Of a stretch of 64,000 bases of DNA, positions 8,824 to 53,286 are shown in pieces. The position numbers and the translations under genes were made by a program. The notes under the pieces were generated by a model. The model made no database searches. It was not told the origin of the DNA and saw only the letters and a program-made list of their open reading frames with translations. Source of the stretch: Minisyncoccota bacterium (GTDB lineage Bacteria > Patescibacteriota > Patescibacteriia > SG8-24 > DYFX01); assembly GCA_052034355.1 (NCBI GenBank), contig JBPOIQ010000002.1:1555-65554 (forward strand), in the 5' to 3' direction. Every line of letters begins with the position of its first letter. Position 1 is the stretch's first letter.

Positions 8824-9609
8824 ATGCCCCGCAATCAAGAAAAGACCGACTATATCGACGTTGTCATCGAGGGCATTCACCATGTGTCTGATGCTCCTCT
8901 CACGGTCGAAGTGCGTGTCGATCCTGAGAGCAATGAGAAGGAAGCGCGCGCGAAGCTTGCGAACGCTGAACCGGGGGTCAAGAGGCTGTATCTTCAGTGG
9001 AGGTACAATGCCGGCGATCCAGGTTGGTCCGACGAGATCTTGTCGATCAACCTCGCGACCAAGCGGTTGGACGACCATGGTGCGGGCAATCCGCTCTTGG
9101 GACGCCAACGCGTCGGATCCGGCGCGCTCGGCGTGGTGATCCTCGCGTCGCCAGCACTCCTGTTCCTCTCACCGTATCTGATCGCGCGTTCGCGCGTGCA
9201 TGCCGTGCGTGAAGCGCGCGCCGGCATGTCGCGTCATGCCATCGCTCTTTTGGACAAGCTCCGCGGTCAGCTCGATCAGGAGACTGCTTCGTTGCTCGAA
9301 GAAGTGTTCAAGAACGAGTGGCAGCGCGACAAGAAGCTCGAGCGTCGCCTGACGTTCGAGGAGGCGCACAAGCTGCTCCTCGCGTGTCATCTCGACGTGT
9401 CGCGCTTCGGGGAAGCGAGCGCGCGGCCGTACGGAGAAGCGAGGCACTGGTTCGATGATCAGGGCGACCACGTTGCCGCGTACGAGTACGAAGACGGCCA
9501 AACCGATCCGCCACGCCTGCGCGTGTGCGGGGGGGTCTTCCTCGGCCGCCAAGCGCGGTCGCTGCTCGACGTCTGCAAGACGCGCACCGATCAATCCGAC
9601 GACAAGTAG
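8824..9609 (+). CDS. hypothetical membrane-associated protein
   Basis: 261 aa with a central hydrophobic helix (GALGVVILASPALLFLSPYLIA). No known motif. Confidence 0.45.
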   Translation: MPRNQEKTDYIDVVIEGIHHVSDAPLTVEVRVDPESNEKEARAKLANAEPGVKRLYLQWRYNAGDPGWSDEILSINLATKRLDDHGAGNPLLGRQRVGSGALGVVILASPALLFLSPYLIARSRVHAVREARAGMSRHAIALLDKLRGQLDQETASLLEEVFKNEWQRDKKLERRLTFEEAHKLLLACHLDVSRFGEASARPYGEARHWFDDQGDHVAAYEYEDGQTDPPRLRVCGGVFLGRQARSLLDVCKTRTDQSDDK

Positions 9610-9672
9610 GTCGTCGGTTTTTATATTGACGAAAACGGGTTTTCGGAGTAGACCTGTGACGGGAGGTAACCG

Positions 9673-11799
9673 ATGAAAACGCTCTTTTTGGCCTGGTTGT
9701 GTCTCTTGTTCGTGGCCTGCGGTTCGAGAGAACCGCCCAGGCAGGACAGTGGAAAGACGGACGTTGTGCCCGTCAGTCCGCCCGTCGTTTTGAAGACGGT
9801 GCGCGTGTATGTCGTCCCGTTCTCCGACGTCGATCAGAAGGGGATGGACTACTTCTCTCTCGGTCTGGCGCTGTTTGCAAACGCGCGGCTCGAAGAGCTT
9901 TCCCAGGATGCCGAAGCGTCGAAAGCGCTGGCGGAGAGGGGATACAAGCTCGAAGCTGTCGTTGGTTCGCACGTGCTGCCTGAAGAGTCGGCAAGGCTCG
10001 CGACTGAGCGACCAAACGACATTTCGCTCGCCGCGATCCATGCGGCTGCGAAACGCGCGGGCGCCACGCACGTGCTGACCGGCTACTACAGCGGTCGTGT
10101 CGAGCGTTGGTCGCTCAGCGTCGTGTTGTACGAAGTCGGTGCCGACCGCCTGCGTGAAATCGATCGCGTGACGGAAGAGAAGATGATCTACGCTTCTTCT
10201 CGCGACGTGCCGAAGCCTTCGCACCCCGGCGTGCAGGGTGACATGGCGCACGCCATGCTCGGAAGCGGGATCGTGAAGACGTTCGCCAAGGCGGGCATCG
10301 ATCTGCCTCCCGCGTATGTCGAAGCGCTCTCGCGACCGCAGACGCCGGACATCGTCTCCTTCATCAACCTTTCTCGGGCGTATCGAGCTCTGCTCACGAG
10401 CGACGAGGATGATGCGATGAAGGCGGCGCTGGCGTACGCGGAGAATGCCGTCAGGATCTGGCCGCGCTATCAGATCGCGCGCCGGCTCTATGCCTGGCTG
10501 CTCTGGCAGACCGGTCTCCCGGAGAAGGCGCGGATGCATTACCAGGAAGCGCTCAAGGATGATCCCAAGGACATTCGTTCGCTCCTGGCGTATGGACGCG
10601 TCGAACTCGATACTGGTCAATACGATGAGGCGCGGGCGAGCTTCGAAGCTGCCGTGGCGCTTCGTTCCGAAGATCCGCTTCTTCACTACTGGCTCGGCGA
10701 GGCGTATGCCAAGCTCGGCCGGGTGCAAGACGCGATCGCTCGTTACGAAACGAGTCGTGACTTCGATCCTGGCAATCTCGATGCGCGGCACGCGCTGGTC
10801 GGCTTGTACGCCAGCGAGCGTCGCTATGCGGATGCCGCGAAGGAACTGCGTGTCATCATTTCGGCGGAACCGGACAATGGTGATCCGATCTACCTGCTCG
10901 CTGCCTGCGAGCGCGCGCTCGGCCACTCGGACGAAGCGTTCGCCGCCTACGACCTCGGCCTTTCTCGATTTCCGAACAATGCGAAGCTCCGCAAGATCCG
11001 CAAAGCGGCGGAGAAAGACGGCAACGGAACGTTTGCCGCCGGACTGCATGTGACGGACGCGCTTCGCGGCCGCATGGAAACGATGCGCGCGGAGTTCCAG
11101 GAAGCCGTCAACGACGGCACTTGGCTCCTGGCGCATGAGAAGGAAGCGGCCTGCGCCGACGGTCTGGCCGGAAGCGATTATCTCTTTGCCCGCGAACGCG
11201 GCGGAGAGTACGAAGCGCATGGCAAGGAACTGCAAAGCCGCGTGCACGCCGTGCGGACGCTGCTCAAGGATGATTGGGGACTGCTCCTGACGCCCGACGA
11301 GCTCGCGCTCGCCGAAGACCTCCTGCGCTACGAGCAGGTGTCCTTGCGCGATTACCGCGAAATGCGGACGGCTTACAACGGCACGTTCAAGCGCATGCTC
11401 TCCGAGCGCGGATGCAACCTTGATCCGCAAGCGGTACGAGCGGCGAAGATCGAAGAAGTGCGCGAGCGTAACGGCAAGCGATACGTGACGATGCCTGAGC
11501 CGCCCAAGCGCGACAACTCCGGTATCTCGCCGGTCGTGCCGAACGATGCGGTCGACAACGTCACGTTCTACGTCGAGAACCTCTCGAACGAAGATATCGT
11601 GCTCGTGCTCGACGGCCGCGCTCTCGCGCCGTCCGTACCGCCCTACGTCGGTACCGGAGACCTGCCTCAATACTCGACCCCGATCGGGGAGCATCAGTTG
11701 TGCCATGTCGCAAAGTCGGCCAAGCCGGAATGCGTCGGCACGAATATCCGTACGTTCGTGGTGGACGAGGGTCTCGTCTACCGCGTCCAGGACCAATGA
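9673..11799 (+). CDS. TPR-repeat lipoprotein (708 aa)
   Basis: Signal peptide with lipobox MKTLFLAWLCLLFVAC-G. Multiple TPR-like repeats (HYWLGEAYAKLGRVQDAIARYETSRDFDPGN, ARHALVGLYASERRYADAAKEL...). The long minus-strand ORF 9169..11796 is antisense to it. Confidence 0.65.
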   Translation: MKTLFLAWLCLLFVACGSREPPRQDSGKTDVVPVSPPVVLKTVRVYVVPFSDVDQKGMDYFSLGLALFANARLEELSQDAEASKALAERGYKLEAVVGSHVLPEESARLATERPNDISLAAIHAAAKRAGATHVLTGYYSGRVERWSLSVVLYEVGADRLREIDRVTEEKMIYASSRDVPKPSHPGVQGDMAHAMLGSGIVKTFAKAGIDLPPAYVEALSRPQTPDIVSFINLSRAYRALLTSDEDDAMKAALAYAENAVRIWPRYQIARRLYAWLLWQTGLPEKARMHYQEALKDDPKDIRSLLAYGRVELDTGQYDEARASFEAAVALRSEDPLLHYWLGEAYAKLGRVQDAIARYETSRDFDPGNLDARHALVGLYASERRYADAAKELRVIISAEPDNGDPIYLLAACERALGHSDEAFAAYDLGLSRFPNNAKLRKIRKAAEKDGNGTFAAGLHVTDALRGRMETMRAEFQEAVNDGTWLLAHEKEAACADGLAGSDYLFARERGGEYEAHGKELQSRVHAVRTLLKDDWGLLLTPDELALAEDLLRYEQVSLRDYREMRTAYNGTFKRMLSERGCNLDPQAVRAAKIEEVRERNGKRYVTMPEPPKRDNSGISPVVPNDAVDNVTFYVENLSNEDIVLVLDGRALAPSVPPYVGTGDLPQYSTPIGEHQLCHVAKSAKPECVGTNIRTFVVDEGLVYRVQDQ

Positions 11800-11804
11800 A
11801 TACG

Positions 11805-11834
11805 GCCTCTGTCATCACGACAGGGGTCTTTTTT
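11805..11834 (+). terminator. intrinsic terminator after the lipoprotein gene
   Basis: CCTCTGTC-atcac-GACAGGGG followed by TCTTTTTTCG. Confidence 0.65.
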
Positions 11835-11836
11835 CG

Positions 11837-11865
11837 TTGACATGGGGGGTTGCCAGGTATATATA
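11837..11865 (+). promoter_or_regulatory. sigma70-type promoter for the PBP gene
   Basis: TTGACA (11837-42), a 17-nt spacer, TATAAG (11860-65). About 70 nt upstream of the ATG at 11936. Confidence 0.55.
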
Positions 11866-11935
11866 AGGAGTTTATTCCGGGAACGAGTGTTCCCGGGATA
11901 CCGTACGCAAACGCGTCCTTCACAAGGAGGGCACC

Positions 11936-14900
11936 ATGTGGCAATGGCTCAAGCGGCAGCTCGATCGAGGCTTGTTGGTATTCAAGGTAGCGATCGCTTA
12001 CGTCGTCATCCTGGCGATCCCGTTGACCATCGTGCTCATGCCTGGTCGTCTCGGGGTGCCGGCGCGGTTTGCTTTCCCACTCGCCCTTATCGTCCTTCCG
12101 GCGCTCTACGCGCTTTGGAGAACGTTCAAGGGTATCGCTGCCCTGGTTGCCAGGTCGGCAGTCTTCCTCTGGAAGTTCCGGCTGTTCCGCGGGATGGTCT
12201 TCACGGCGTCAGCCGCGCTGGCCGTCGTGATCGCGCTCATGAACGTTCTGCGTTCCGGCGCGTACATGCGGCTGGGTCTCATGTGCGAAGCGATCGGACT
12301 CTTCGGTATTTTCGCGGCCGCGTTTCTCTCGAATCCGCCCGAGCGCATCCTTGCGCGCATGCGGAGCTGGAGAGTCTCGCCCGCGTATTCCGGCGCGTTC
12401 AACATCTTCCGCATCGCCATGTGGCTCATTGGCATCGCGCTCATCGACTGGTGGCTCTATGCCATGGTTGACGGGCTACTCTGGGGCAACTGGCTCATGT
12501 TGCCGTGGCAGTGGGTCGGCAACCTACCGTACTTCGTCGAGATCTTCTTTGCGCCGTTGGAACATCCGATTGCCCTCGCGACGCTTCCACCGATCGTCTT
12601 CACGTTCTTTGCGCTGCTGGCGCGTCCTCCGTACGTGCGACGCGCTGCACCACGCAAGGTGTTGACGATTCGCAGCGTACCGCCGGGACTGCGTCGTGCC
12701 TTCAAGCGGCTCTACGGTGGAATTCCGATGTATACGATCGAGCGGGAGCCGAAGTTCGTGCAATTCACCGCTCCAGACGGAAGCGTTGGCCAAGCCGGCG
12801 AACGATTCGTCTTCATGCGGATGCTTTGCACGGGATTCGCGCTCGGGACCCTTCTGACTTGCGTGATCCTCACGCGGCTCGCTGAAGGATTCGTTCAAGA
12901 GATGCCCGACGATCTCTCCAGCGTCGAAAGCTATCAGCCGGTCGTCTCGACGATCGTGCTCGATCGCAACAAGAAGCTGATGTGCAGCTTTTCGCTCGAG
13001 AATCGCACGTGGACGGATCTTGAAAACGTTCCGGGCTACGTGCAAGAGGCGTTCATCGCTTCGGAAGACAAGACGTTCTGGACGCATGATGGGCTCGATC
13101 CGAAAGGTATCCTGCGCGCGCTTCTTCACAACTTGAGGGACAAAAACGCGCAGCAAGGCGCCTCGACGATTACTGCCCAAGTGATCAAACAGGTCGTGCT
13201 CAAGGACTCGAGTCCGACGATCGAGCGCAAGCTCAAGCAGTTCTTCTTGGCCGTCCGTCTTGAGAGAGAGATGGCAGAGAAGTACGGGCGCCGCAAAGCC
13301 AAAGAAAAGATTCTCGAGGTCTATCTGAATCACGTGTACCTCGGCAAGAACGCCTACGGCGTCGAGGCTGCAGCGGAAACGTATTTCGGAAAGTCCGTTC
13401 GGAATCTGACGTTGGCCGAAGCGGCGATTCTGGCCGGTTTGCCGAAGGCGCCATCGGATGATTCGCCCGACGGGCATTTCGACCGCGCCAAGGTGCGTCA
13501 GCGCTACGTGCTCGGTCGCATGCGCGAGAATGGCGTGATCACGAAAGCTGAGTATGAAGAAGCACTTCTCGTGCCGATCACGCTCATCAAGCGTGCGCAC
13601 CCGTTCAACATGGCGACGGCGCCGTTCGCTTGCGAGGAAACCCGCAAATTCGTCGAACGCACGTTTGGCTATGACGCGGTGTACAAGCAAGGTTTGATCA
13701 TTCACACAACCTTCGATCTCGTTCGCCAGCGCCAAGCGCAAGTCGATGTACGATTCGGTCTGCGCGAGCTCGAACGTCGCCTGGGTTTTGCCGGTCCGGA
13801 AGGACATGACAATGACGCCGGGTCGACATGCGAGCACCCGATGGGATTGGTTGTCGATAATGCTGTCGAAGCAAACGCACGCGTCGTTGCGCGTAGCGGC
13901 TCGTCGATCACGCTATGCGTGCGCGGTCATGCCTTTCCGCTCGATGCGGAGGACGTAGATCGTGTTGTCAGGTGGGAGCGAGCCAAGTCGGGTCGCAAGC
14001 TCGTTCTTGGGGATCTCCTCACGGTTCGCATTGAGACGAGGGAAAAGGGTGATGGTACGTCCGAACGCTTCGCGTTGACCGCTCGCCGTACCGGCGGGAA
14101 GGATCATCCTGAAGCGTTGCAGGCCGCGATCGTCGCCATCGATCCACAAAGCGGGGAAATCCGCGCGCTGGTCGGAGGCTACGATTGGAACGAGAGCCAG
14201 TTCAACAACGCCACGCAAGCGCGGCGTCAAACGGGCTCCTCGATCAAGCCATACGTTTATCTGACGGCGCTCATGAACGGAAAGACGGTCGTCTCGACCG
14301 TGCTTGATGCGCCGATCTGTCTTCCGACCGCTTCCGGCATGTGGTGCCCGACGAACTATTCGGGCCCCAGAACGACGCGCGTCTTCTATGGCACCGTCGA
14401 TCTGGTCACGGCGCTCGCGAAGTCGCTCAACTCCGTATCTGTCCGGCTTCTCGTCGAAGTTGGTCTCGATAAGGCGATTGCGACGATGCGCGCGCTCGGT
14501 ATCCGCTCGCCGATCGTTCGGGTCTTTCCCTTGGCTGTCGGAACTCCCGAGATCACTCTTTGGGAACACACTGCCGGCTACGCGACGATCCTTTCGAACG
14601 GACGCGCGATGGCGCCGCAGAAAGAAGGCTACGCTCCCGGCATCTTCGTGAAGTCGGTCGAAACCTTCGTTCGGACTCCATCCGGCCATTCCGAGCTAAA
14701 GACGATTTATACCGCGCCGGAACGTCCGGAAACGCAGGCGGTGCCTTCGGGCGACGCCTATGCGATGACGGAGCTCATGCGCGGCGTGGTCGAGTTCGGA
14801 ACCGGTACGCGCGCCAAGAAGTTGCGTCGTCCTGTGGTCGGCAAGACCGGTACGACGAACAACTTCCAGGACGCGTGGTTCATGGGCGGTACATCCGATC

Positions 14901-15202
14901 TCGTCGTTGGTACCTGGGTCGGACGCAGGACGCCTGCTCCGATTGCGAGGGAAGCGACGGGTGGTGTCGTAGCGCTTCCGATCTGGCTCGCCTTCATGGA
15001 ATCGGTCTTTCCGGTCCCTGCGGACGGCCAGCCGTTCTCGACGCCGCCTCGGGATTTCCCGATCCCGAACGACGTCACACTCCTACGTCGAGGTACGACC
15101 GACAATGGCCGCACCGGCCTCCTCCCGTTCCAACGGGGGAAGACGCCGGACGCCTATCTCGAAGCGCCAAACGCCGACTTCGGCCAAGGCGCCTTCGAAT
15201 GA
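11936..15202 (+). CDS. class A penicillin-binding protein (bifunctional glycosyltransferase family 51 (GT51)/transpeptidase) fused to a ~270-aa polytopic N-terminal membrane domain
   Basis: GT51 motifs EDKTFWTHDG and GASTITAQVIKQ. Transpeptidase motifs SGSSIKP (SxxK), SLNS (SxN), KTGTT (KTG). The first ~290 aa carry about six or seven hydrophobic helices before the canonical anchor helix. Confidence 0.85.
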   Translation: MWQWLKRQLDRGLLVFKVAIAYVVILAIPLTIVLMPGRLGVPARFAFPLALIVLPALYALWRTFKGIAALVARSAVFLWKFRLFRGMVFTASAALAVVIALMNVLRSGAYMRLGLMCEAIGLFGIFAAAFLSNPPERILARMRSWRVSPAYSGAFNIFRIAMWLIGIALIDWWLYAMVDGLLWGNWLMLPWQWVGNLPYFVEIFFAPLEHPIALATLPPIVFTFFALLARPPYVRRAAPRKVLTIRSVPPGLRRAFKRLYGGIPMYTIEREPKFVQFTAPDGSVGQAGERFVFMRMLCTGFALGTLLTCVILTRLAEGFVQEMPDDLSSVESYQPVVSTIVLDRNKKLMCSFSLENRTWTDLENVPGYVQEAFIASEDKTFWTHDGLDPKGILRALLHNLRDKNAQQGASTITAQVIKQVVLKDSSPTIERKLKQFFLAVRLEREMAEKYGRRKAKEKILEVYLNHVYLGKNAYGVEAAAETYFGKSVRNLTLAEAAILAGLPKAPSDDSPDGHFDRAKVRQRYVLGRMRENGVITKAEYEEALLVPITLIKRAHPFNMATAPFACEETRKFVERTFGYDAVYKQGLIIHTTFDLVRQRQAQVDVRFGLRELERRLGFAGPEGHDNDAGSTCEHPMGLVVDNAVEANARVVARSGSSITLCVRGHAFPLDAEDVDRVVRWERAKSGRKLVLGDLLTVRIETREKGDGTSERFALTARRTGGKDHPEALQAAIVAIDPQSGEIRALVGGYDWNESQFNNATQARRQTGSSIKPYVYLTALMNGKTVVSTVLDAPICLPTASGMWCPTNYSGPRTTRVFYGTVDLVTALAKSLNSVSVRLLVEVGLDKAIATMRALGIRSPIVRVFPLAVGTPEITLWEHTAGYATILSNGRAMAPQKEGYAPGIFVKSVETFVRTPSGHSELKTIYTAPERPETQAVPSGDAYAMTELMRGVVEFGTGTRAKKLRRPVVGKTGTTNNFQDAWFMGGTSDLVVGTWVGRRTPAPIAREATGGVVALPIWLAFMESVFPVPADGQPFSTPPRDFPIPNDVTLLRRGTTDNGRTGLLPFQRGKTPDAYLEAPNADFGQGAFE

Positions 15203-15208
15203 GCTCAG

Positions 15209-15237
15209 ACCCCCTGCCAAGCGGCAGGGGGTTTTTC
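15209..15237 (+). terminator. intrinsic terminator after the PBP gene
   Basis: CCCCCTGCC-aa-GCGGCAGGGGG followed by TTTTTCTATTTTTT. Confidence 0.75.
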
Positions 15238-15350
15238 TATTTTTTCGGGGGTCAGAAGAGGGTTGACAAAACCCTTGTTTTACGCTAGACTACCTCGGTT
15301 CCGGCGTGTTGCCGGGGCATCAACCTCCACCGCTCTTTCAAGGGAGTGTC

Positions 15351-16505
15351 ATGTCGAAGGAAAGCTCGACGAATCCGGTTCCATTCGTGATCGCGGCGAT
15401 CATCATCGCCGCCGTCGCGTTCGGGCATACGAAGAAGGAGCGGCATGCTGGTGGCGGGCGCGACGCGTCCGTTTCCAACGACAGCTCCGACAACGAAGCC
15501 TCGGAAGGAGAAGAAGAGAGCGGCGCGGCGCCGTCCGACGGTACGGCGCGCGTCGTCCTCGTGTCGCTCGACGGCATGCACGTGAAGTTGATCGACGTCA
15601 TGCCGCACCTGCGGCAGATGTTCGACGAAGGCTCATACACGCTGAAGGCGCGGGTGCCCTGGGCTACGCTCGAGGTGCCCGACGAAAACGGCGTGTCCGC
15701 GAGGATCTCTCGCGGCGCCACGACGGCCGTCTCGCACGCTGCGCTCTTCACGGGCGCGGATCCCGAGGTGAACGGCGTGACGAACGAGCCGATCGACGAC
15801 GCGCATCACACGCGCCACGTCCACGGCGTCGCGTTTCGATGGACTCCGCTTTTGGTGAAAGAAACCATCTTCACCGCGGTGGAGCAGTCGGGACGAGGCG
15901 TCCGTGCCTACGTCGAGAAGGGGAAGCTGGTCGGCCTGCTCCGCGCCGACGGTTCCGAAACCGGGATCGTCACGAGGAACAGTATCGATCGGTTCGCTCT
16001 CCGCGACTGCGAGGCGTTCAAGGACGCTTCGGCCGGCTTGATCGTCTTGCACTTCAAGATGATCGATGGCGCCGGGCATAACGTCGGTTGGCTCACTCCC
16101 GAGCAGTACAAGGAGGCTGAGATCATCGACGGCAAGCTCAAGGTGATCCGGGACTGCATCGCTGTGGCCGACGCGCGCGACGGTCTCTCGACCACGCTGA
16201 TCGTGACCGCCGACCACGGCGGTACGCCCGGCCTGAAGAAGGGCCACAGCGCGAACGATGACGACAATCGTCTCGTTCCATGGGTCATCGTCGGTCCCGG
16301 CATCAAGCGGGGTTACGAGATTGTTGGTCGGAACGACTTGCCGCCTATCCGGAATCCCCGGAACGGTGGTCCGAGCGTGCCAGCCGCGATCAACCTCTAC
16401 GACACCGTGCCGACGATCTTGCGCATCCTGGGCTTGCCCAGGAGCGCGATGCCATCACTCTCGGTTCAAGCAAAGTCCGTCGACGAAGTCTTCGTTACGG
16501 ACTGA
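15351..16505 (+). CDS. alkaline-phosphatase-superfamily enzyme, nucleotide pyrophosphatase/phosphodiesterase (NPP)-like, membrane anchored
   Basis: ATG 15351 (MSKESS...) followed by a TM helix. RVVLVSLDGMH is the NPP metal-site motif, with VTADHGG later. The upstream part of ORF-track 15306..16505 is unlikely to be coding. Confidence 0.6.
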   Translation: MSKESSTNPVPFVIAAIIIAAVAFGHTKKERHAGGGRDASVSNDSSDNEASEGEEESGAAPSDGTARVVLVSLDGMHVKLIDVMPHLRQMFDEGSYTLKARVPWATLEVPDENGVSARISRGATTAVSHAALFTGADPEVNGVTNEPIDDAHHTRHVHGVAFRWTPLLVKETIFTAVEQSGRGVRAYVEKGKLVGLLRADGSETGIVTRNSIDRFALRDCEAFKDASAGLIVLHFKMIDGAGHNVGWLTPEQYKEAEIIDGKLKVIRDCIAVADARDGLSTTLIVTADHGGTPGLKKGHSANDDDNRLVPWVIVGPGIKRGYEIVGRNDLPPIRNPRNGGPSVPAAINLYDTVPTILRILGLPRSAMPSLSVQAKSVDEVFVTD

Positions 16506-24628: not shown

Positions 24629-25802
24629 ACGCGCCATTATTCTCGGAGCGTTCGCGCTGGTCGCTGTCGCGACGGCTTTCTCTTTTTTGCGCGAACCCGA
24701 TCCGCAAGCCGTCCTTCGCCAGGCGGCGAAAAACGTGCTGGCGGAAAAATCGTTTCATCTCGACGTGCGCGGAACGATCGTCGGTTTGCCGAAAGGACTT
24801 GAGGGCGGCGTCGTAGCTGATGCGACGGGGGTCGACATGACCGCGAGTATGGATATCGATCGCACTGATCCGATGCGCCAAGCTTCGGTTTCGACCTTCG
24901 AATTGATGCAAGGCCTTTCGACGGGCGGTCAAGCCAAGCTTGCAGGTGAGGCGCGTCGCAAGAATGGCGTGCATTATCTGCGCCTCAGCGCGTTGGAAGG
25001 TGTTCAAGGTCTTGAAGCAAAGCGCATTGTCGGCACGTGGATGAAAGCTGGGCAGCCGTTTATCGACTTGTTGCTCGCTTCCGGCGCGCCGGAGCCGGAT
25101 ATGGATGCCTCCGAAGTAGAAGCGATGAAGCTTCGCGCGCGTTCGGTTGATCTGTTCACGGTCGTGAAAAAACTCCCGAACGAGACGGTTGCAGGCGCGA
25201 AATCGTTTCACTATGCGGTTGAGTTGAATATGGAGGTCGTTTCGGCGCTTCTTTTGAAGCGTCGGGAAATGCGGTTGGACCGGGAGATGACCTCCGAAGA
25301 CGTGCTGGCCGTCACGGAAGAGCTTCTGCAATGGAACCGGCCAGTTGGCGAAATTTGGGTTGATGCGCGCACGCGGAAGGTGAAACAGCTCACGCTGGGT
25401 ACCGCGCTTGGACAAGATGGTAAAGGAGGCGCTGCCGCCGCGACACTCACGTTTTCCAACGAGGGTAAACCCGTCACTATTCAGGTTCCGGAGGCGGAAG
25501 ACGTCGATAAGGTGCTCGGTCCGCTTTTTGAAAAACGCCTGAGCCTGTCTGGTTCGCGCGCCAAAACGCAAGGCTCCGCTGAAGCCGAGAAAGAAACCGC
25601 AACCGCTCTGCCCGTCCTTCCGGGGACGGCTGCACAAAATACCGACACCGACAACGATGGATTATCCGACGCGCAAGAAGCTTTTTACGGCGCTGATGCT
25701 TGGAATCCCGACACCGACGGCGACGGTTATATGGACGGTCTTGAGGTCGACAAAGGCATGAATCCGCTCGGTCCTGGGCCTTTGTTCGGATTCGGTCTAT
25801 GA
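24621..25802 (+). CDS. membrane-anchored hypothetical protein with C-terminal thrombospondin-type-3-like Ca-binding repeats
   Basis: N-terminal TM helix. C-terminus DTDNDGLSDAQEAFYGADAWNPDTDGDGYMDGLEVDKGMNP (DxDxDG repeats). Confidence 0.55.
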   Translation: MSKRAIILGAFALVAVATAFSFLREPDPQAVLRQAAKNVLAEKSFHLDVRGTIVGLPKGLEGGVVADATGVDMTASMDIDRTDPMRQASVSTFELMQGLSTGGQAKLAGEARRKNGVHYLRLSALEGVQGLEAKRIVGTWMKAGQPFIDLLLASGAPEPDMDASEVEAMKLRARSVDLFTVVKKLPNETVAGAKSFHYAVELNMEVVSALLLKRREMRLDREMTSEDVLAVTEELLQWNRPVGEIWVDARTRKVKQLTLGTALGQDGKGGAAAATLTFSNEGKPVTIQVPEAEDVDKVLGPLFEKRLSLSGSRAKTQGSAEAEKETATALPVLPGTAAQNTDTDNDGLSDAQEAFYGADAWNPDTDGDGYMDGLEVDKGMNPLGPGPLFGFGL

Positions 25803-27502
25803 ACCGCCTGCGGCTTCTGCGTATCGGTTTTTTTGCCGTCGGCCTGCTGCTTATCGGGCAGTTATTTCGCATCCAAGTACTCTCGCACGACTTCTACGCG
25901 GCGTTGGCTGAAGGTCAGCACGACCTTTTTGAGCATTTGTTTCCGGCGCGCGGAAAGATTTATGCGCGGGATCATCAGTCCGGCGACCAGACGTTTCTCT
26001 TGGCGACGAATCGTACCTTGAACTTGCTGTTTGCGGAGCCGTTCCGCATCAAGAATCCCATCAATACCGCCGACGCGCTCGCGCCGATTTTGAATATCGA
26101 CGCTGCGGAACTCAAAAATAAGATCTCGAGCCCGACGGAACGGTATCGCGTGCTGGCGCGCAAGCTTGATGATGAAACGCGGAAGAAGATCGAGGTTTTG
26201 CAGCTCGAAGGGATCGGTTTTACGAAAGAAGATTTTCGTTTTTATCCCGAAGGCGGCACGGGCGCGCAGATGCTCGGCTTCGTCGGGGAGAGCGACAAGG
26301 GGAAAAGCGGGCGCTACGGCATTGAAGGCTGGTTCGACAAGGAGCTCGCGGGCGCACAAGGATATCTGCAATCGGAGAAGGATTCCCGAGGCCGCGTCAT
26401 TGCGGTCGGCAATCGCACGATCCAGCCGGCCAAAGACGGCGATGATATCGTCTTGACGATTGATCGTACGGTGCAGTACGTCGCCTGCAAAAAACTCGAC
26501 GAATGGATCAAAAAATTCAACGCGCAGAAAGGCAGCGTTGTGATTCTTGATCCGCATACGGGCGGCATCATTGCCCTGTGCAACGCGCCGACCTTCGACC
26601 CCAACGAGTACGGGAAAATTGAAAATGTCGACGTCTATAACAATACGGCGATCTTTGAGCCGTACGAATCCGGTTCCGTGTTCAAGACGATCACGATGGC
26701 AGGCGGACTCGATTCCGGAAAAGTGCTGCCTACGACGATCTTCGACGATCCGGGTGAAATCAAAATCGGGCCGTTCACCATTCGCAACTCCGATCTCAAG
26801 GCGCATGGCCGCGTCGATATGACGACCGTGCTGGCTGAATCGCTCAACACAGGCATGGTCGACGTGGTGCATACTCTCGGACCGCAGAAGTTCTTGAGCT
26901 ACGTACGCGACTTCGGCTTCGGCCAAAAAACCGGAATCGAATTGCAGTCGGAGGGCGCAGGCAACATTGAGCCGCTTTCTCGCAAAGGCGATATCTGGTC
27001 GGCAACCGGTTCGTTCGGGCAAGGCATTACGGTTACCGTCTTGCAGCTCGCCTCCGCGTACGGAGCGATCGCCAACGACGGCGTATTGTTGAAACCGTAC
27101 ATCATCGACGAGATCCGTCATGGCGACGGTACGGTCGAGAAGCGGGCGCCGAAAACCGTACGAAACGTCATTTCGAAGCGCGCTGTCGATCTGCTCTCCG
27201 GCATGCTTGTCGCCGTCGTCGAGAAGGGGCATGGTAAGCGTGCCGGCGTTCCGGGGTATTGGATTGCCGGTAAAACCGGCACTGCCCAGATTCCGCGAGC
27301 CGACGGTGGAGGATATGAAGTCGGACCGACGATCGGCTCGTTTGCCGGGTTCGGGCCGGTCGACGATCCGAAGTTCGTGATGGTTGTCCGGGTCGACCGC
27401 CCCGAAGGCGTGCAGTTTGCCGAGTCGACTGCGGCTCCACTCTTCGGCGACATCGCCAAATATCTGCTGGATTATTATCAGGTACCGCCGACGCGCAAAT
27501 AA
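25799..27502 (+). CDS. class B penicillin-binding protein (PBP2/FtsI-type transpeptidase)
   Basis: N-terminal TM, dimerisation domain, SGSVFK (SxxK), SLN, KTGTA motifs. Confidence 0.85.
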   Translation: MNRLRLLRIGFFAVGLLLIGQLFRIQVLSHDFYAALAEGQHDLFEHLFPARGKIYARDHQSGDQTFLLATNRTLNLLFAEPFRIKNPINTADALAPILNIDAAELKNKISSPTERYRVLARKLDDETRKKIEVLQLEGIGFTKEDFRFYPEGGTGAQMLGFVGESDKGKSGRYGIEGWFDKELAGAQGYLQSEKDSRGRVIAVGNRTIQPAKDGDDIVLTIDRTVQYVACKKLDEWIKKFNAQKGSVVILDPHTGGIIALCNAPTFDPNEYGKIENVDVYNNTAIFEPYESGSVFKTITMAGGLDSGKVLPTTIFDDPGEIKIGPFTIRNSDLKAHGRVDMTTVLAESLNTGMVDVVHTLGPQKFLSYVRDFGFGQKTGIELQSEGAGNIEPLSRKGDIWSATGSFGQGITVTVLQLASAYGAIANDGVLLKPYIIDEIRHGDGTVEKRAPKTVRNVISKRAVDLLSGMLVAVVEKGHGKRAGVPGYWIAGKTGTAQIPRADGGGYEVGPTIGSFAGFGPVDDPKFVMVVRVDRPEGVQFAESTAAPLFGDIAKYLLDYYQVPPTRK

Positions 27503-27503
27503 T

Positions 27504-28781
27504 ATGATCAAACATCTTCAGGCCGTTCTCGCGTTTTTGGCGCGCACGACGCTCGCCAGGTACGCGCCCAAGATCGTCGCCGTGGCCGGTTCGGTTGGGA
27601 AAACATCGACGACGCGCGCCGTGACCGCGACCTTGGCCCGCTCGTTTTCCACGCGGGGGAGCGTGAAGAATCACAACAACGAAATTGGCGTGCCGCTCAC
27701 GATTCTCGGCGAGCCGAAGTCGGGCGGACGCTCGCCGTTCGCTTGGGCCGCGATTCTGTGGCGCGGTTTCCGGCTTGCGTTTGGACCGGCGCGGCCGTAT
27801 CCGAGCGTTTTGGTTCTTGAAATGGCGACCGATCATCCGGGGGACTTGGCGTACCTCGCTTCGATCGCGCCGCCCGACGTCTCCGTGCTGACCGCAATCG
27901 CCGAAGAGCATACGGAATTTTTGGGAGACTTGGATGGCGTGGCGAAAGAAGAGGGGACGATCGTGCGCGCGCTTGGCGAGCAGGGAACGGCTGTCTTGAA
28001 CGGGGATGACCCGCGCGTCGCTGCACTGCGGCAAGAATCGTCTCAAGCGATGCTCTTCGGTTTTGGCGAGGCGGCGCATGTGCGCGCCGAACGCGTTCAG
28101 CCGGAGCTTGCACTCGGTACCGTGTTCACGCGCTTCGATTTGGTAATCGGTGGACATCGGTATCCCGTCAATCTTCCGAATGCCCTCGGCGACGGCAATG
28201 TGTATGCCGCGCTCGCGGCTGCGTCGGTCGCACTCGCGTTTCATGTCGATCCGGCGGTCATTCCGTACGGACTCGCCGAGTATCAGCCGCCGCCGGGACG
28301 CTTGCGCGTTTTGCCGGGCATCAAAGAGACGATGTTGGTTGACGATACCTACAACTCTTCACCGCGCGCGGCTGAACTCGCGCTCGCGACGTTTCAGCGC
28401 CTGCCGCTTCGTTCCGGCGGGCGGCGCATTGCCGTTCTCGGCGACATGCTTGAACTCGGAATGTTGACGGAATCGGCGCACGAGCGCATTGGTCGGTTGG
28501 CGGCTGCTTCCGGCGTCGAGTGGTTAATCGGCGTCGGATCCGCTTCCGCGATGTTGTGTCGTGCCGCGCGTGATGTGGGAATGGCTGAGGAACGGGTGTT
28601 TCATTTTCCGAATGCGCAGGAGGCCGGTCGTTTTTTGCAGGAACGGGTAGGCCAAGGAGACATGCTTTTGATAAAAGGCTCACAAGGCGTTCGTTTGGAA
28701 AAAATCGTCAAAGAATTGATGGCGGAGCCGGAGCGGGCGGAAGAGCTCCTGGTACGACAATCCAAGGATTGGCTGAACTAA
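27504..28781 (+). CDS. murF: UDP-N-acetylmuramoyl-tripeptide--D-alanyl-D-alanine ligase
   Basis: ATG 27504, 1 nt after the PBP stop. Mur ligase P-loop VAGSVGKTSTT and Mur-ligase central/C-terminal domains. Confidence 0.8.
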   Translation: MIKHLQAVLAFLARTTLARYAPKIVAVAGSVGKTSTTRAVTATLARSFSTRGSVKNHNNEIGVPLTILGEPKSGGRSPFAWAAILWRGFRLAFGPARPYPSVLVLEMATDHPGDLAYLASIAPPDVSVLTAIAEEHTEFLGDLDGVAKEEGTIVRALGEQGTAVLNGDDPRVAALRQESSQAMLFGFGEAAHVRAERVQPELALGTVFTRFDLVIGGHRYPVNLPNALGDGNVYAALAAASVALAFHVDPAVIPYGLAEYQPPPGRLRVLPGIKETMLVDDTYNSSPRAAELALATFQRLPLRSGGRRIAVLGDMLELGMLTESAHERIGRLAAASGVEWLIGVGSASAMLCRAARDVGMAEERVFHFPNAQEAGRFLQERVGQGDMLLIKGSQGVRLEKIVKELMAEPERAEELLVRQSKDWLN

Positions 28782-28801
28782 GCGAAAAAAGCCAGCGCCT
28801 C

Positions 28802-28830
28802 TTGACAGAATCGGCTTTTTGGGCTAAATT
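28802..28830 (+). promoter_or_regulatory. candidate sigma70 promoter for the kinase gene
   Basis: TTGACA, 17-nt spacer, TAAATT. Confidence 0.35.
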
Positions 28831-28859
28831 CAGCCGTTTCCTGGGCGTTCGCCTCTGGA

Positions 28860-30497
28860 ATGTCCTTTGACCAAACTGGTCACCAAACACACAGCCTACC
28901 TCGAGAAAAGGAGGTCCCCTTGGCCAAGCTCTCTGATACCGACCGCGAGTTGGGCGAGAAGCTCACTCGTGGGCGACGGGGGGCGGACATCGCTCCGCCG
29001 TCACAGCGAAAGATCGGCAAGTACGAGATCGCGCGGAAGCTCGGCTCCGGTGGTATGGGGGACGTGTTCCTCGCCATCGATCCGGATCTCGGGCGTGAGG
29101 TCGCCATCAAGGTGATCAATCTCCCGATCTCCATCTCCACGCCGGAGGCGATGCGCACGCTGAGCGATCGTTTTCGTCTCGAAGCGCGATCGGCCGCCAA
29201 GGTCGCACATCCCAACGTGGTGACGATCTACGAGTTCTCCGAGATGGCAGGCAAGCACCTGCTCGTCATGGAGTACATCCACGGTCGTACCCTCAAGGAG
29301 TTGATCGAGGGTGGCAAGGCGTTGCCCCCGGTGCAAGCCGCGCGCCTCGCGATTGATGTCTTGGATGGACTCGCCGCTATTCACAAGGCGGGCATGATCC
29401 ACCGCGACGTGAAGCCGATGAACCTCATGCTGACCTCCCAAGGTCGCGTGAAGATTCTCGACTTCGGACTCGTGAAGGACACTTTGCAACCCAGCGACCT
29501 GACCCAAGTGGGCATCGTCGCCGGTTCGCCGTCCTACATGGCGCCCGAACAGACCGGTCTTGTCACGGGCAAGGTTGATGCGCGGTCGGATCTCTACGCA
29601 CTTGGCGTCGTGCTCTTCCAGCTTCTCACGGGTCATCTGCCGTTCAGTGGCAACAACCTGATCGAGACTCTGAGACAGCATTGCCAGGTGCCGGTTCCGC
29701 CCGTCGCGACTCCCTGGGGTCCGGCTCCATTCGAGATGGTCGAGATCGTCCGCAAGGCGATGTCGAAAAAGCCCGATGAACGGTTCGCCTCGGCCGAGGA
29801 TATGCGAGAAGCACTTCTGCGGTTCACCGAGTCGAAACCGGCGATCAGCGGCTTGTCGAAGACGCTGCCGGCTCATGAAGCCACGCCTCCGGCGGTGTCG
29901 CGCACGATGACGCCTTCGGGTGTCGGGACGCCTCGTCGCCTTGCGCCGGTCGCGGCCAATGCGACGTCGAGCCAACGCCCGCGTTCCCCAAGCGTTCCAC
30001 CGCCGATCCCGGCCCGTGCTCCCAAGCCGAGCGTTCCGCCGCCCAGCCCTCCTGCGATGCCTGTCCAGGCCTCAAAGAGGAGCTGGTCGTGGACACTGCT
30101 CGGCTTCGTCTCGGCGATCGGGTTTCTCGTCGTCTGGCTGTACGTCACCGGGCGTACCCCGTGGAGCGCACGCGCTTCTCAGGCACGCATGGGGCTTGCG
30201 GGTTCGGCGGCTGCTACTTTGGCGCCCGACGCGTCCGTGCCTGTTGTCGTGCCGACGGCCGATGATGGGTGCAAGGCGTACGAAGAGATGAAGCTCGGTC
30301 GCGCGATCGAGATTCTGAAGCCGCTCGATGTCGGCGCGCTGAGTGCCGAGCAGCTCTTCTGCCTCTGCGCTTCCGAGCACGCGCTCGGACACGCCGATGA
30401 ACAGAAGGACTGTCGGCTCTACCTGAAACATCCCCTCCGCGATCGCGGCAAGGCGCGACAGGTCGAGCACTGGCTCTCCAAGCCCGGCACGCACTAG
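28860..30497 (+). CDS. Hanks-type Ser/Thr protein kinase with Pro-rich linker, TM helix and extracytoplasmic C-terminal domain
   Basis: LGSGGMGDVFLA (Gly loop), AIKVI (VAIK), HRDVKPMN, DFGL, SPSYMAPE. Pro-rich segment, then TM WTLLGFVSAIGFLVVWLYV. Confidence 0.85.
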   Translation: MSFDQTGHQTHSLPREKEVPLAKLSDTDRELGEKLTRGRRGADIAPPSQRKIGKYEIARKLGSGGMGDVFLAIDPDLGREVAIKVINLPISISTPEAMRTLSDRFRLEARSAAKVAHPNVVTIYEFSEMAGKHLLVMEYIHGRTLKELIEGGKALPPVQAARLAIDVLDGLAAIHKAGMIHRDVKPMNLMLTSQGRVKILDFGLVKDTLQPSDLTQVGIVAGSPSYMAPEQTGLVTGKVDARSDLYALGVVLFQLLTGHLPFSGNNLIETLRQHCQVPVPPVATPWGPAPFEMVEIVRKAMSKKPDERFASAEDMREALLRFTESKPAISGLSKTLPAHEATPPAVSRTMTPSGVGTPRRLAPVAANATSSQRPRSPSVPPPIPARAPKPSVPPPSPPAMPVQASKRSWSWTLLGFVSAIGFLVVWLYVTGRTPWSARASQARMGLAGSAAATLAPDASVPVVVPTADDGCKAYEEMKLGRAIEILKPLDVGALSAEQLFCLCASEHALGHADEQKDCRLYLKHPLRDRGKARQVEHWLSKPGTH

Positions 30498-52700: not shown

Positions 52701-53286
52701 CCGTACCACTTGCGCCACGAACGACTCTGAAACGGACAGCATCGTTTGCGAAGACATCGCCGAAGTCTACGAGACGGGCGAGCATACCGAACCCGGCGAC
52801 GTGATCGTGTGGAGGCCGGACGTCGACAACAAAGTCTACAAGTCGCGAAAACCGTACGAAGACGGCATCGCCGGCATCTACTCGACTTCCCCGGGCGTGC
52901 TCATGGGTAACCAGGATGTCAACGGCAAGTACGGCGTCGAATTAGGTAACGCGAACACGGCTGAGACGATCAAGAAACTCGGCTCGACGCATGCGGCGGT
53001 CGCTTTGGCCGGGCGCGTACCCGTCAAAGTCACGCTCGAAGGCGGCGCGATCAAACCCGGAGATCTTCTCACCAGCTCTTCGAAAGCCGGTTATGCGATG
53101 AAGGCAAGCAAAACAGGTCGCGTCGTCTGCATGGCGATGGAGTCGTTCGATGAGTATTCGAAGGGCGACAAGGTCATGTGCTATGTCAATCCACACCAGT
53201 GGGTTGATCCGCGCGAGTACGACGGCCTCAAGTCAGACTTGGAGAGCATGAAGGCCGATATCGAAGCGCTGAAAGCGAAAAAGTAA
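49759..53286 (+). CDS. giant secreted repeat protein (1175 aa) with phage-tail-fibre-type repeats and Gly/Thr/Asn-rich beta-rich body
   Basis: Signal peptide MRIATTDRKLFVSLVAFVALAFGAGAAHA. Repeats ...GVPSYTFNGDSNTGLYSLGADAIGVTTGGVNRLMI... / ...APGLSFNGDPDTGLYRTADNVMNVATNGVRTMVF.... Long G-Y-G-rich repeats (YGGYLYGSGATTANYGVAAYGIGGTTAYG). C-terminal coiled-coil-like tail. The minus-strand ORFs 49750..51045 and 51697..52785 are antisense to it. Confidence 0.75.
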   Translation: MRIATTDRKLFVSLVAFVALAFGAGAAHAQFAAPTCTPPNCSPAVIQNIPIASGAQNASINITGDAKVGATFQAGGSTPVLNASGQNLYYGNVAGTSSAGSLLLLQFGAADRFRIGLTGDVTSQGVYSSAAGSVGVPSYTFNGDSNTGLYSLGADAIGVTTGGVNRLMINNGGVSIGTGVLYAPAGTVSAPGLSFNGDPDTGLYRTADNVMNVATNGVRTMVFSATNSVVVPGMLHVQGGLDANLGGNGSGITNINANNITSGTLNDARLSSNVALLNRTGQTFTGTNTFSSLTTFGASAGPVISINNSVGGVEIGGISENAFNFYTQGSIYNQIDSNNNSTNSYYWLNGAGANVMTLDESGNFDVEGMVTLGSPDMRLLNPGENLIYGNVDQFAAGNILLLQAESVDRFSVDADGNVVAAGTITSSGQAVCLQNGANCPQSVGGFGTPNALAKFDASGYALTSSSITDDGATIGVGGAPSASYAMTVYGVIYANALSTPRIDAYAPGAGATAIYGTADGAGSTGIYGSGASTGIYGSSAATGVYGRSTGAGAGVYGSSSSGYGGDFSSLRVAGVTLFQGGVTLANSTTLQLGLSAVDVGGTNGRMYYNSTTNKFRCYENGSWQDCRDGGMGGSGTVNTIPKFTAASTIGNSTLTDDGVTVTAAQNFAVNGNTTIGNAAADTLTLTGTAVATPNNLNIDANTLYVDALNNRVGVGTNAPGTTLAVAGTLAVTGNTTLGDAAADRTTINGELVLGSQATNPAGVNGMMFYNSLNNKFRCYENGTWINCGGEEDTLDTVAVRGAIAYRSLAIDTNGGGTFLGGEALTIEGTGTGIYSSATDYGVRGNTTGVNGIGVWGGGQLYGGYFGATSAAGYAVRADAFSANNIAVYAQGRLQVTQTAGFGGAAPSAAYGIQTQGNYGIVSYGQGANNANYGGYLYGSGATTANYGVAAYGIGGTTAYGVLAYAQGGTNNYALYATLGSIRTTCATNDSETDSIVCEDIAEVYETGEHTEPGDVIVWRPDVDNKVYKSRKPYEDGIAGIYSTSPGVLMGNQDVNGKYGVELGNANTAETIKKLGSTHAAVALAGRVPVKVTLEGGAIKPGDLLTSSSKAGYAMKASKTGRVVCMAMESFDEYSKGDKVMCYVNPHQWVDPREYDGLKSDLESMKADIEALKAKK

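Follow-up and report, generated by a model that had tools for sequence, protein, structure and literature searches.

A class A penicillin-binding protein with a conserved N-terminal module of six predicted membrane helices in a Minisyncoccota bacterium

The window (a 64,000-nucleotide stretch of contig JBPOIQ010000002.1, from a Minisyncoccota bacterium) contains a gene for a class A penicillin-binding protein (aPBP) that appears to carry six membrane helices in addition to its anchor, raising the questions of whether this fusion is genuine, how the added segment arose and what it could do for the enzyme. Canonical aPBPs are bitopic: a short cytoplasmic tail leads into a single helix (PMC7205459). 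The gene considered here (11936..15202, + strand; complete CDS, from the ORF list with Pfam and NCBIfam matches) encodes a protein of 1088 aa with seven predicted transmembrane (TM) helices.

The catalytic part is conventional in its layout. A GT51 peptidoglycan glycosyltransferase domain (Transgly; residues 352-529, 12989..13522, + strand; Pfam PF00912, 4.7e-57) precedes a transpeptidase (penicillin-binding) domain (residues 731-984, 14126..14887, + strand; Pfam PF00905, 2.1e-17) that includes SSIKP at 768 (S768-xx-K), SLN at 830 (S830-x-N) and KTGT at 970 (K970-TG). Homology to the PBP1A family model TIGR02074 is clear from the sequence match (NCBIfam; E = 3.7e-149), despite a score of 497.9 bits that falls marginally below the curated cut-off of 508.75. 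These domain and family matches, together with the SxxK, SxN and KTG motifs, confirm the class A assignment made in the first-pass annotation. GT51 motif 1 is EDKTFWTHDG (pattern EDxxFxxHxG), with E377 as the catalytic Glu. Motif 3 reads RKLKQ, Q435 replacing the second conserved Glu of RKxxE; this form is common to the window protein and P0002-P0008, while RKxxE is kept in P0009-P0033. No Pfam match was obtained within residues 1-321.

The gene is bounded by its own expression signals. The upstream neighbour (9673..11799, + strand) encodes a 708-aa TPR-repeat protein with multiple TPR Pfam matches and a lipoprotein-type N-terminus (MKTLFLAWLCLLFVAC); a TPR gene lies immediately upstream of the PBP gene in L001/L002, L010/L011, L012 and L013; in L014 and L015, which are distant relatives, it is likewise upstream, at a distance of one gene or more. 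Judging from this gene order, the TPR protein may be a partner of the seven-TM PBP. The neighbour ends at an intrinsic terminator (11804..11838, + strand; terminator scan and RNA fold) with a 10-bp stem, 5-nt loop and T-run, which bears out the first-pass annotation: the hairpin (11804-11828) folds at -19.9 kcal/mol (z = -5.3; 0/200 shuffles as stable) and is conserved in orthologues. A putative sigma-70-type promoter, read from the sequence at 11837..11865 (+ strand), consists of TTGACA (11837-11842), a 17-nt spacer and TATATA (11860-11865). The two hexamers do not vary among five orthologous loci and the -35 is perfect, but the label 'near-consensus' needs softening as the -10 matches at 4/6 positions; the scanner did not call this promoter because the -10 hexamer ends in A. 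A conserved 5′ UTR hairpin follows (11877..11896, + strand; CCGGGAAC-GAGT-GTTCCCGG), its arms conserved in the orthologue alignment; substitutions in L003, L004 and L010 (A->G, C->T) preserve base pairing only in G.U form, which points to an RNA-level element. The strong ribosome-binding site AAGGAGG (11924..11930, + strand), 5 nt before the ATG, is kept in orthologues as a purine-rich GGAGG-like tract. A second intrinsic terminator (15207..15244, + strand; terminator scan) with a 12-bp stem (15207-15234; 8 G-C pairs) and T-run follows the PBP gene, and the presence of terminators on both sides indicates a monocistronic unit. A gene for a PknB-like Ser/Thr kinase is located at 28860-30497, 14 kb downstream of the PBP gene.

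A gene of this kind could be an artefact, in which a frameshift, an assembly join or an over-extended start joins an ordinary PBP1A to an unrelated gene for a membrane protein that lies upstream. Two observations point that way: the gene is broken by several frame changes on L009, a low-quality metagenome contig, and split products (P0123 and P0125) occur within one cluster. However, what L009 carries is the same fused gene, riddled with errors, and the P0123/P0125 break falls in the transpeptidase domain, away from the junction. The same uninterrupted ORF (1070-1097 aa) was recovered in at least 25 protein clusters and at least 10 independently assembled loci, answering the earlier suggestion that the fusion be sought in related genomes. 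It is single and unbroken in L001-L008 and L010-L012, including the closed 1.17-Mb chromosome CP129476.1, in assemblies from four independent sources (NCBI, ENA, JGI and Logan), and no frameshift splits off an upstream ORF in these loci. The module is present in all 24 full-length clusters (54-100% identity), in the partial P0026 and in the fragment P0121; family members share the start M-x-x-L-K-R, the RBS, the promoter and the upstream terminator, and none of those found has reverted to a single anchor. Neither the window nor 15 loci contain a stand-alone copy or paralogue of the module. Production of a normal-length PBP from an internal start at M294/M296 is unlikely, as no SD-like sequence lies upstream of these codons in the window gene. 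With independent unbroken loci effectively refuting it, an artefact has a next to negligible probability, and the protein is a genuine, conserved single-polypeptide bifunctional aPBP in which a module of ~290 aa precedes a normal one-helix anchor, much as the first-pass annotation had held in arguing against an assembly join. The fusion was found only in a rare lineage of uncultured small-genome bacteria, represented by three species-level genomes plus a handful of contigs from metagenomes.

Hydropathy and structure prediction agree on the organization of the module. Kyte-Doolittle 19-residue peaks occur at 18-36, 41-61, 87-105, 113-131, 157-178 and 211-229, and the anchor gives a further peak at 294-316; a second scale (Hessa) backs TM1, TM3, TM4, TM5, TM6 and the anchor and is marginal for the proline-rich TM2. 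AlphaFold2 (AF2), run with a 26-sequence alignment, places helices over the same segments, with pLDDT 72 overall, 79-90 for TM5, TM6, the predicted mini-domain described below and the anchor, and pTM 0.44; the single-sequence model is poor (pLDDT 51). All six helices quoted in the first-pass annotation, which had described about 270-290 extra residues ahead of the usual anchor, are thus found by both approaches, giving seven predicted helices rather than one or two. TM1-TM4 (residues 18-36, 44-62, 87-105 and 113-131; 11987..12328, + strand; hydropathy, AF2 helices and segment conservation) form the less conserved outer part. TM5 (157-178), periplasmic loop 3 (179-210) and TM6 (211-229) form a core hairpin (12404..12622, + strand; conservation and AF2) with pLDDT 79-89. 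TM7 (residues 294-316; 12815..12883, + strand; hydropathy, and an AF2 helix over 293-322 with pLDDT ~90) is the canonical aPBP anchor and aligns with the one helix that anchors ordinary relatives (group g36). Loops assigned to the cytoplasm contain 26 Lys+Arg versus 3 in periplasmic loops, which fits an N-in, seven-TM topology with the catalytic domains outside. The predicted arrangement is therefore a cytoplasmic N-terminus, six TM helices, a basic linker, the anchor TM7, and GT51 and transpeptidase domains outside the membrane. An internal duplication of hairpins was considered for the module, and hhalign comparison of TM1-2, TM3-4 and TM5-6 gave a weak 13-column similarity only ('AAFLSNPP' versus 'FALLARPP', P = 0.01), too little for such a claim.

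Searches for a known identity of the module were negative. Across 15 members and at E values up to 5, no FtsW/RodA (SEDS) or other Pfam/NCBIfam match was obtained; the absence of a FTSW_RODA_SPOVE (PF01098) match in the window protein (E up to 1) and the 15 members (E up to 5), and the presence of six helices, support the earlier statement that the extension is not SEDS-like. MurJ (MVIN), Amj, UppP/BacA, PAP2, DedA, DUF368 and GtrA likewise gave no match (Pfam/NCBIfam, 15 members), nor did CofA/DUF3566, CozE, MreD or other known aPBP partners (Pfam), and there is no fold match in PDB. A weak NCBIfam match to BcsB (E = 0.045) lies in a hydrophobic stretch and is spurious. Literature on multi-TM aPBPs, CPR peptidoglycan synthases and E290/E233 mutants yielded nothing specific except the CofA paper, and the lipocone/VanZ paper describes no such PBP fusion. 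By sequence comparison the module is lineage-specific, about 290 aa long and matches nothing known in Pfam, NCBIfam or PDB.

Conservation within the module is uneven and is concentrated beside the anchor and on the side facing the cytoplasm. Maxima coincide with TM5, periplasmic loop 3, TM6, the PPYLRRAAPR motif and the predicted mini-domain; segment by segment, TM6 is the best conserved helix and TM1-4 are weakly conserved, with an invariant cytoplasmic motif, LWKxRxFR (78-85), and a conserved membrane-embedded E118 (TM4) in this outer region. Conserved residues of the core hairpin include W163, D171 and W173 in TM5 and N185, W186 and P190 in loop 3. TM3 and TM6 display one-sided helical periodicity of conservation (p about 0.009), which together with the AF2 pLDDT values suggests a packed bundle rather than loose anchors. 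Estimates of dN/dS are 0.30-0.45 for residues 1-232, 0.11-0.45 for the linker and 0.06-0.13 for the transpeptidase domain. With values well below 1, the module is under purifying selection, while evolving 3-6 times faster than the catalytic domains. The syntenic orthologue P0029, whose gene order (methyltransferase, TPR protein, PBP, phosphodiesterase, DUF6938) is that of the family, matches residues 77-336 and is without TM1-2, while P0027/28 match residues 152-336 only and are without TM1-4; the core hairpin is shared in both cases (hhalign 98.9% and 85%, respectively). These shorter versions suggest stepwise accretion of helices, and the module appears, on these alignments, to have originated by successive N-terminal additions within one orthologous gene lineage.

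The module could nonetheless be evolutionary baggage: hydrophobic hairpins that accreted onto the anchor under near neutrality and provide anchoring alone, with no specific activity or partner. Its relaxed dN/dS relative to the transpeptidase domain, the lack of any detectable known domain and a helix number that varies among orthologues (seven, about five to six, or four) are all in keeping with this, and fast evolution combined with varying helix number would likewise fit an appendage under weak constraint. Among non-family relatives retrieved, 76/94 have one predicted helix, and the ordinary relatives closest to the family carry either no extra hairpin or a two-helix one unrelated to the module, such a hairpin having arisen independently in a neighbouring PBP clade. 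Against mere baggage, about 25 invariant and 15 near-invariant module positions persist despite 35-40% identity and include charged intrahelical residues and the cytoplasmic motif with its mini-domain; every family member found retains the module, none being back to a single anchor, and dN/dS remains well below 1. A purely passive anchor thus seems unlikely.

Between TM6 and the anchor lies a basic cytoplasmic linker (residues 230-293; 12623..12814, + strand; conservation and AF2; 13 K+R versus 4 D+E) comprising PPY-x-RRA-x-PR, a predicted beta-alpha-beta-beta mini-domain (240-288) and a (P)DG...GERFVF end. The motif is PPYLRRAAPR in the window protein and PPYxRRAxPR across the family (231-240). 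Y233, R235, R236, A237, P239, R240, D281, G288, R290 and F291 are invariant, with further conservation at K273, G282 and GERFVF (288-293). The AF2 mini-domain (pLDDT ~82) runs from a strand (240-247) through a helix (250-260) to two more strands (266-278, 284-288); it has no Pfam match and, with the family profile, no PDB match. A single-sequence PDB hit (9x0w_O, E = 0.0047) comprised two sub-threshold fragments, disappeared with the family profile and is considered spurious.

The position of this linker would suit a cytoplasmic signal receiver, with residues 230-293 acting as a regulatory input (a PilZ-type second-messenger pocket or a Ser/Thr kinase target) that switches peptidoglycan synthesis from inside. 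R235-R236-x-x-x-R240 directly follows the last helix of the module and precedes a beta-rich segment, and the RxxxR motif of the BcsA PilZ domain has a similar position. The PilZ version was rejected: although the protein has RRAAPR, it has no D/NxSxxG, the second PilZ motif, and instead conserves DG(R)xxxxGERF, the segment of ~50 residues with three strands is too small for a six-stranded PilZ barrel, and no PF07238 match was found at E up to 10 (three mini-domain sequences) or up to 5 (15 members). For the kinase version, the window does encode a PknB-like kinase (28860-30497), and some aPBPs or their cofactors are under phosphorylation control (MacP, PonA1 and Mtb CofA; PMC7205459). However, the kinase gene is not adjacent to the PBP gene and the linker is without a conserved Ser or Thr, making a receiver of either kind decidedly improbable.

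The reading that we prefer, at a probability of roughly 0.4 and by analogy with known aPBP partners, is that the module serves the synthase as a membrane cofactor or scaffold within its own chain. In this model the conserved TM5-TM6 hairpin, together with the mini-domain, would lie packed alongside the anchor; for TM5/6 against TM7 this packing is a proposal, the AF2 pTM being only 0.44. The extracellular enzyme would thereby have a broader, specific contact area in the membrane and present a conserved, arginine-rich face to the cytoplasm, and through these, partners in the cytoplasm or membrane could influence its stability, its activity or where it is placed. For other aPBPs this role falls to separate membrane proteins acting in trans; the module would fill it in cis.

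One feature fits less comfortably. Invariant or near-invariant S107, E118, W163, D171, W173, N185, W186 and P190 cluster at the predicted outer-leaflet/periplasmic interface, and E118, D171, W173, N185 and W186 are not explained by purely cytoplasmic docking and fit ligand binding better. Lipid II and C55-PP head groups sit near the outer leaflet, and buried acidic residues with tryptophans are typical of sugar-pyrophosphate-lipid binding sites. The six helices might accordingly handle substrate, binding or translocating lipid II or undecaprenyl pyrophosphate at the outer leaflet and so feeding GT51 or clearing its product. The very small host genome (1.17 Mb closed), in which a domain fusion could replace separate factors, is in keeping with this, as is the change of the second GT51 glutamate to Gln in the window's subclade, with which leaving-group handling might differ. 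Yet MurJ, Amj, SEDS, UppP/BacA, PAP2, DedA, DUF368 and GtrA models and PDB folds are all unmatched, TM1-4 are weakly conserved, the loss of TM1-2 or TM1-4 from syntenic orthologues would hardly be tolerable for a transporter, and E118 lies within the part missing from P0027/28. Substrate handling is therefore rather unlikely, and its boldest form, a new domain binding or translocating lipid-linked precursors that couples lipid II delivery or undecaprenyl pyrophosphate removal to polymerization and cross-linking on one chain, is improbable.

Textbook aPBPs are bitopic, and current work asks how LpoA/B, CofA, CozE, MacP and GpsB control them. A conserved polytopic module and mini-domain welded to an aPBP anchor is proposed as a cis-encoded example of such control, and the window protein could reveal which surface of the anchor helix matters. 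The module also defines an uncharacterized membrane domain family. Were it to bind lipid II or carrier lipid, it would represent a new way for a reduced genome to secure substrate supply, and a domain that binds or translocates such precursors would place the work of a flippase or carrier-lipid handler in one protein with a polymerase and a transpeptidase. As the lineage is rare and uncultured, immediate impact is limited to comparative and structural work and heterologous experiments.

Compared with canonical aPBPs (TIGR02074; E. coli PBP1A/PBP1B, C. glutamicum PBP1a), the window protein has the same anchor-GT51-transpeptidase order, the same placement on the outer face and the same GT51 motif 1, SxxK, SxN and KTG motifs, and differs by six extra helices and a cytoplasmic segment of ~60 aa before the anchor, and by RKLKQ in its subclade in place of RKxxE in GT51 motif 3. 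Amj is about 270 aa long with six predicted helices, so that its size and helix number resemble those of the module. Conserved acidic and aromatic residues near the outer leaflet recall lipid II flippases and carrier-lipid enzymes more broadly (MurJ, Amj, UppP/BacA, PAP2/PgpB, DedA/UptA, DUF368/PopT), but the module is without sequence or fold match to these, is without PAP2 or UppP catalytic motifs, and half of its helices are dispensable in orthologues. SEDS-bPBP pairs (RodA-PBP2, FtsW-FtsI) and natural SEDS-PBP fusions likewise combine a polytopic domain with a periplasmic penicillin-binding transpeptidase. SEDS proteins have ten helices and a large extracytoplasmic loop, whereas the module has six, is without the loop and has no FTSW_RODA_SPOVE match; unlike these systems, the window protein also brings a GT51 polymerase of its own.

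GpsB binds its PBP at a cytoplasmic motif that is rich in Arg and close to the membrane, and the invariant PPYxRRAxPR of the window protein is likewise Arg-rich and membrane-proximal, although the GpsB-docking motif precedes a single anchor and the window motif follows TM6. CozE and MacP are membrane factors that direct or activate aPBPs in Streptococcus (PMC7205459). All three (Streptococcus, Bacillus), which act from the cytoplasmic or membrane side, are separate proteins without homology to the module. A parallel in arrangement is CofA (DUF3566, Corynebacterineae), which has two TM helices in an N-in/C-in topology, binds the PBP1a TM anchor in Corynebacterium and is required for PBP1a stability or accumulation and polar placement (PMC7205459). 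CofA is a protein in its own right, of 114 aa and two helices, whereas the window module has six and a folded cytoplasmic segment (both predicted), and in the absence of a DUF3566 match the two would be analogous, not homologous. The even number of helices before the anchor and the 26 versus 3 K+R nevertheless predict the same N-in/C-in hairpin topology for the module, which in the window protein is joined covalently upstream of the anchor itself.

The class A PBP (aPBP) gene (11936..15202, + strand; ATG start, 1088 aa) is a self-contained transcription unit, bounded by terminators at 11804-11828 (-19.9 kcal/mol, z = -5.3) and 15207-15234, with promoter-like hexamers (TTGACA, 17 nt, TATATA; 11837-11865), a 5′ UTR hairpin (11877-11896) and AAGGAGG 5 nt 5′ of the ATG. 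Pfam assigns residues 352-529 to GT51 (4.7e-57) and 731-984 to the transpeptidase domain (2.1e-17), and the NCBIfam PBP1A family model covers 356-1024 (3.7e-149); residues 1-321 have no match in either database. The leader (11800-11935), which holds the upstream terminator, the -35 and -10 hexamers and the hairpin, is 84% identical over five orthologous loci (coding dS 0.1-1.8). Hairpin substitutions leave the arms paired, but only through G.U, and this suggests a regulatory or stabilising element acting at the RNA level.

A full-length search recovered 24 clusters (1070-1097 aa, 54-100% identity, 100% query coverage) and a partial sequence (P0026), all with the N-terminal region, so that the fusion, for which the first-pass annotation proposed a search in related genomes, is indeed present there. 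Its claim that the fusion is not a join of two genes is borne out by independent NCBI, ENA, JGI and Logan assemblies: in each of loci L001-L008 and L010-L012, including the closed 1,167,441-bp chromosome CP129476.1, a single unbroken ORF runs from a conserved M-x-x-L-K-R start into GT51. Breaks occur in just two copies, one on an error-ridden 3-kb contig (L009) and one in another assembly (P0123/P0125), where the break falls within the transpeptidase domain, and M294 has no SD-like sequence ahead of it; an artefact is extremely improbable. In five pairwise comparisons dN/dS of residues 1-232 is 0.30-0.45, which means that this stretch is translated and evolves under purifying selection. For the transpeptidase domain, the four closest pairs give 0.06-0.13 and the most distant 0.24, so that in those four the constraint on residues 1-232 is ~3-6 times weaker than on the catalytic core. 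Separately, dS measured against L010, the closest orthologue, varies along the gene: it is 0.45 for the TM module (11936-12631) and 1.24 for the anchor, against 0.13 for the transpeptidase domain (14111-15025). Past recombination or differing codon constraints may account for this.

Kyte-Doolittle peaks at 18-36, 41-61, 87-105, 113-131, 157-178 and 211-229 (TM1-TM6), followed by the anchor at 294-316 (TM7), are exactly the hydrophobic segments that the first-pass annotation had picked out, and the Hessa scale agrees for every helix except the second, which is proline-rich. Keeping GT51 and transpeptidase domains outside requires an even number of helices ahead of the anchor, which six satisfies; Lys+Arg total 26 in the loops assigned as cytoplasmic and 3 in the periplasmic ones. 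Helices predicted by AlphaFold2 (26-sequence alignment; pLDDT 72, pTM 0.44) coincide with the hydropathy segments, with an anchor helix at 293-322 and a small beta-alpha-beta-beta unit between it and TM6 (240-288). Conservation in TM3 and TM6 has helical periodicity (p about 0.009), which a packed helix bundle would be expected to show.

By every available test the module is an orphan. Fifteen members searched against Pfam and NCBIfam with permissive thresholds hit no family, and the family profile matches no PDB sequence. When 1.84 billion representatives (50% identity) were scanned exhaustively with phmmer, the sole hits were P0008, which represents this family itself, and P0121, a fragment that likewise continues into GT51. 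Foldseek, suggested at first pass and run with the module, gave no matches below E = 1, and no stand-alone copy is present in the window or any fetched locus.

Among the best 120 PBP hits, 76 of the 94 non-family sequences have a single predicted helix before GT51, and the 10 with two or more are all the module family's closest relatives. The gene order around P0029 (PBP part 46% identical) matches that of the window: methyltransferase, TPR protein, PBP, PF01663 phosphodiesterase, DUF6938. Because the N-terminus of P0029 aligns with residues 77-336, without TM1-2 (hhalign probability 98.9%), and P0027/28 match residues 152-336 only (TM5-TM6, PPY motif, anchor; 85%), the module looks like the end-point of stepwise N-terminal accretion of helices on one orthologous aPBP. 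The next clade, with some members labelled Kofleriaceae, has an unrelated two-helix hairpin. Carriers comprise only three species-level genomes (GTDB r232) and four JGI metagenome contigs, mostly deposited as 'Patescibacteria group bacterium'; the window's short YidC (220 aa) and housekeeping context would suit a bacterium with a small genome.

Within the module, conservation is lowest in TM1-TM4, although this part holds an invariant cytoplasmic motif, LWKxRxFR (78-85), and, within TM4, E118. The conserved core spans TM5 (W163, D171, W173), periplasmic loop 3 (N185, W186, P190), TM6 over almost its full length, an invariant PPY-x-RRA-x-PR straight after TM6, the linker (K273, D281, G282) and GERFVF, abutting the anchor on its N-terminal side. 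Since conservation peaks in the hairpin and cytoplasmic segment beside the anchor, and on the cytoplasmic face, the module is best, if tentatively, read as a built-in membrane cofactor or scaffold of the synthase (probability roughly 0.4). Invariant acidic and aromatic residues clustered at the outer-leaflet interface (E118, D171, W173, N185, W186) suggest the main rival, handling of lipid II or undecaprenyl pyrophosphate, but this is unlikely given that TM1-4 are dispensable in orthologues and the module has no similarity to known flippases or phosphatases. Near-neutral elaboration of the anchor is likewise doubtful, as the module is universally retained and contains invariant charged residues. 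A PilZ-like or kinase-regulated input site is improbable: the second PilZ motif is missing, Pfam support is nil and there is no conserved Ser/Thr. Under the cofactor or scaffold reading, N-in/C-in hairpins followed by the anchor would be the covalent equivalent of the CofA arrangement, and the Arg-rich membrane-proximal motif and mini-domain could offer a docking or regulatory surface.

Two GT51 motifs are altered, and only in the window protein and in P0002-P0008, which are closely related to it: motif 2 reads GASTITAQ instead of ...TQQ (residues 408-415; 13157-13180) and motif 3 RKLKQ instead of RKxxE, replacing the second conserved glutamate with Gln (codon 435; 13238-13240). P0009-P0033 retain the canonical residues, and judging from these motifs the subclade's polymerase may be weakened or follow an altered mechanism.

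In every orthologue the gene directly upstream encodes a TPR protein (9673-11799, +; 708 aa, lipoprotein-like signal LLFVAC), and this gene also lies upstream in the distant relatives P0027, P0029 and P0030. The TPR protein is a possible partner of the synthase, similar in kind to LpoA or CpoB, and has no LpoA family matches. An 875-aa antisense ORF overlapping this whole gene (9169-11796, -) was rejected as a high-GC shadow ORF: its frame composition matches that of a strand lying opposite a coding region. Immediately 3′ of the aPBP, a TM-anchored alkaline-phosphatase superfamily enzyme (PF01663, Phosphodiest; 15306-16505, +), with its own promoter-like site (15263-15291), is conserved, followed in conserved order by Smr, DUF6938 and a GH-like gene. 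A second peptidoglycan cluster (25799-30497, +) encodes a SpoVD/PBP2-like class B PBP (567 aa), a Mur ligase (27384-28781, +) and a PknB-like Ser/Thr kinase (28860-30497, +), with no adjacent SEDS gene. ORFs at 31504-34338 (944 aa) and 49759-53286 (1175 aa), both +, have no Pfam/NCBIfam matches at 1e-4/1e-5. An 817-aa protein with a TraD/VirD4-type coupling-protein ATPase segment (56590-59043, +) hints at a conjugative or DNA-translocation element in a small genome.

No description of such an aPBP architecture was found in the searchable literature. The architecture is genuine and conserved, unusual in structure for an enzyme class that has been studied extensively, and open to experiment; it is confined to a rare uncultured lineage, and its role is a predicted one. 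The catalytic domains place the protein among class A PBPs, but it departs from their bitopic topology and its subclade lacks the motif 3 Glu. The module belongs to none of DUF3566, SEDS (as the first-pass annotation held), MurJ, Amj or PilZ. In C. glutamicum, PBP1a depends for its stability and polar placement on CofA, a two-helix protein that binds the synthase's TM anchor (PMC7205459); the window protein is proposed to function as would an aPBP to which a CofA-type partner had been fused in cis.
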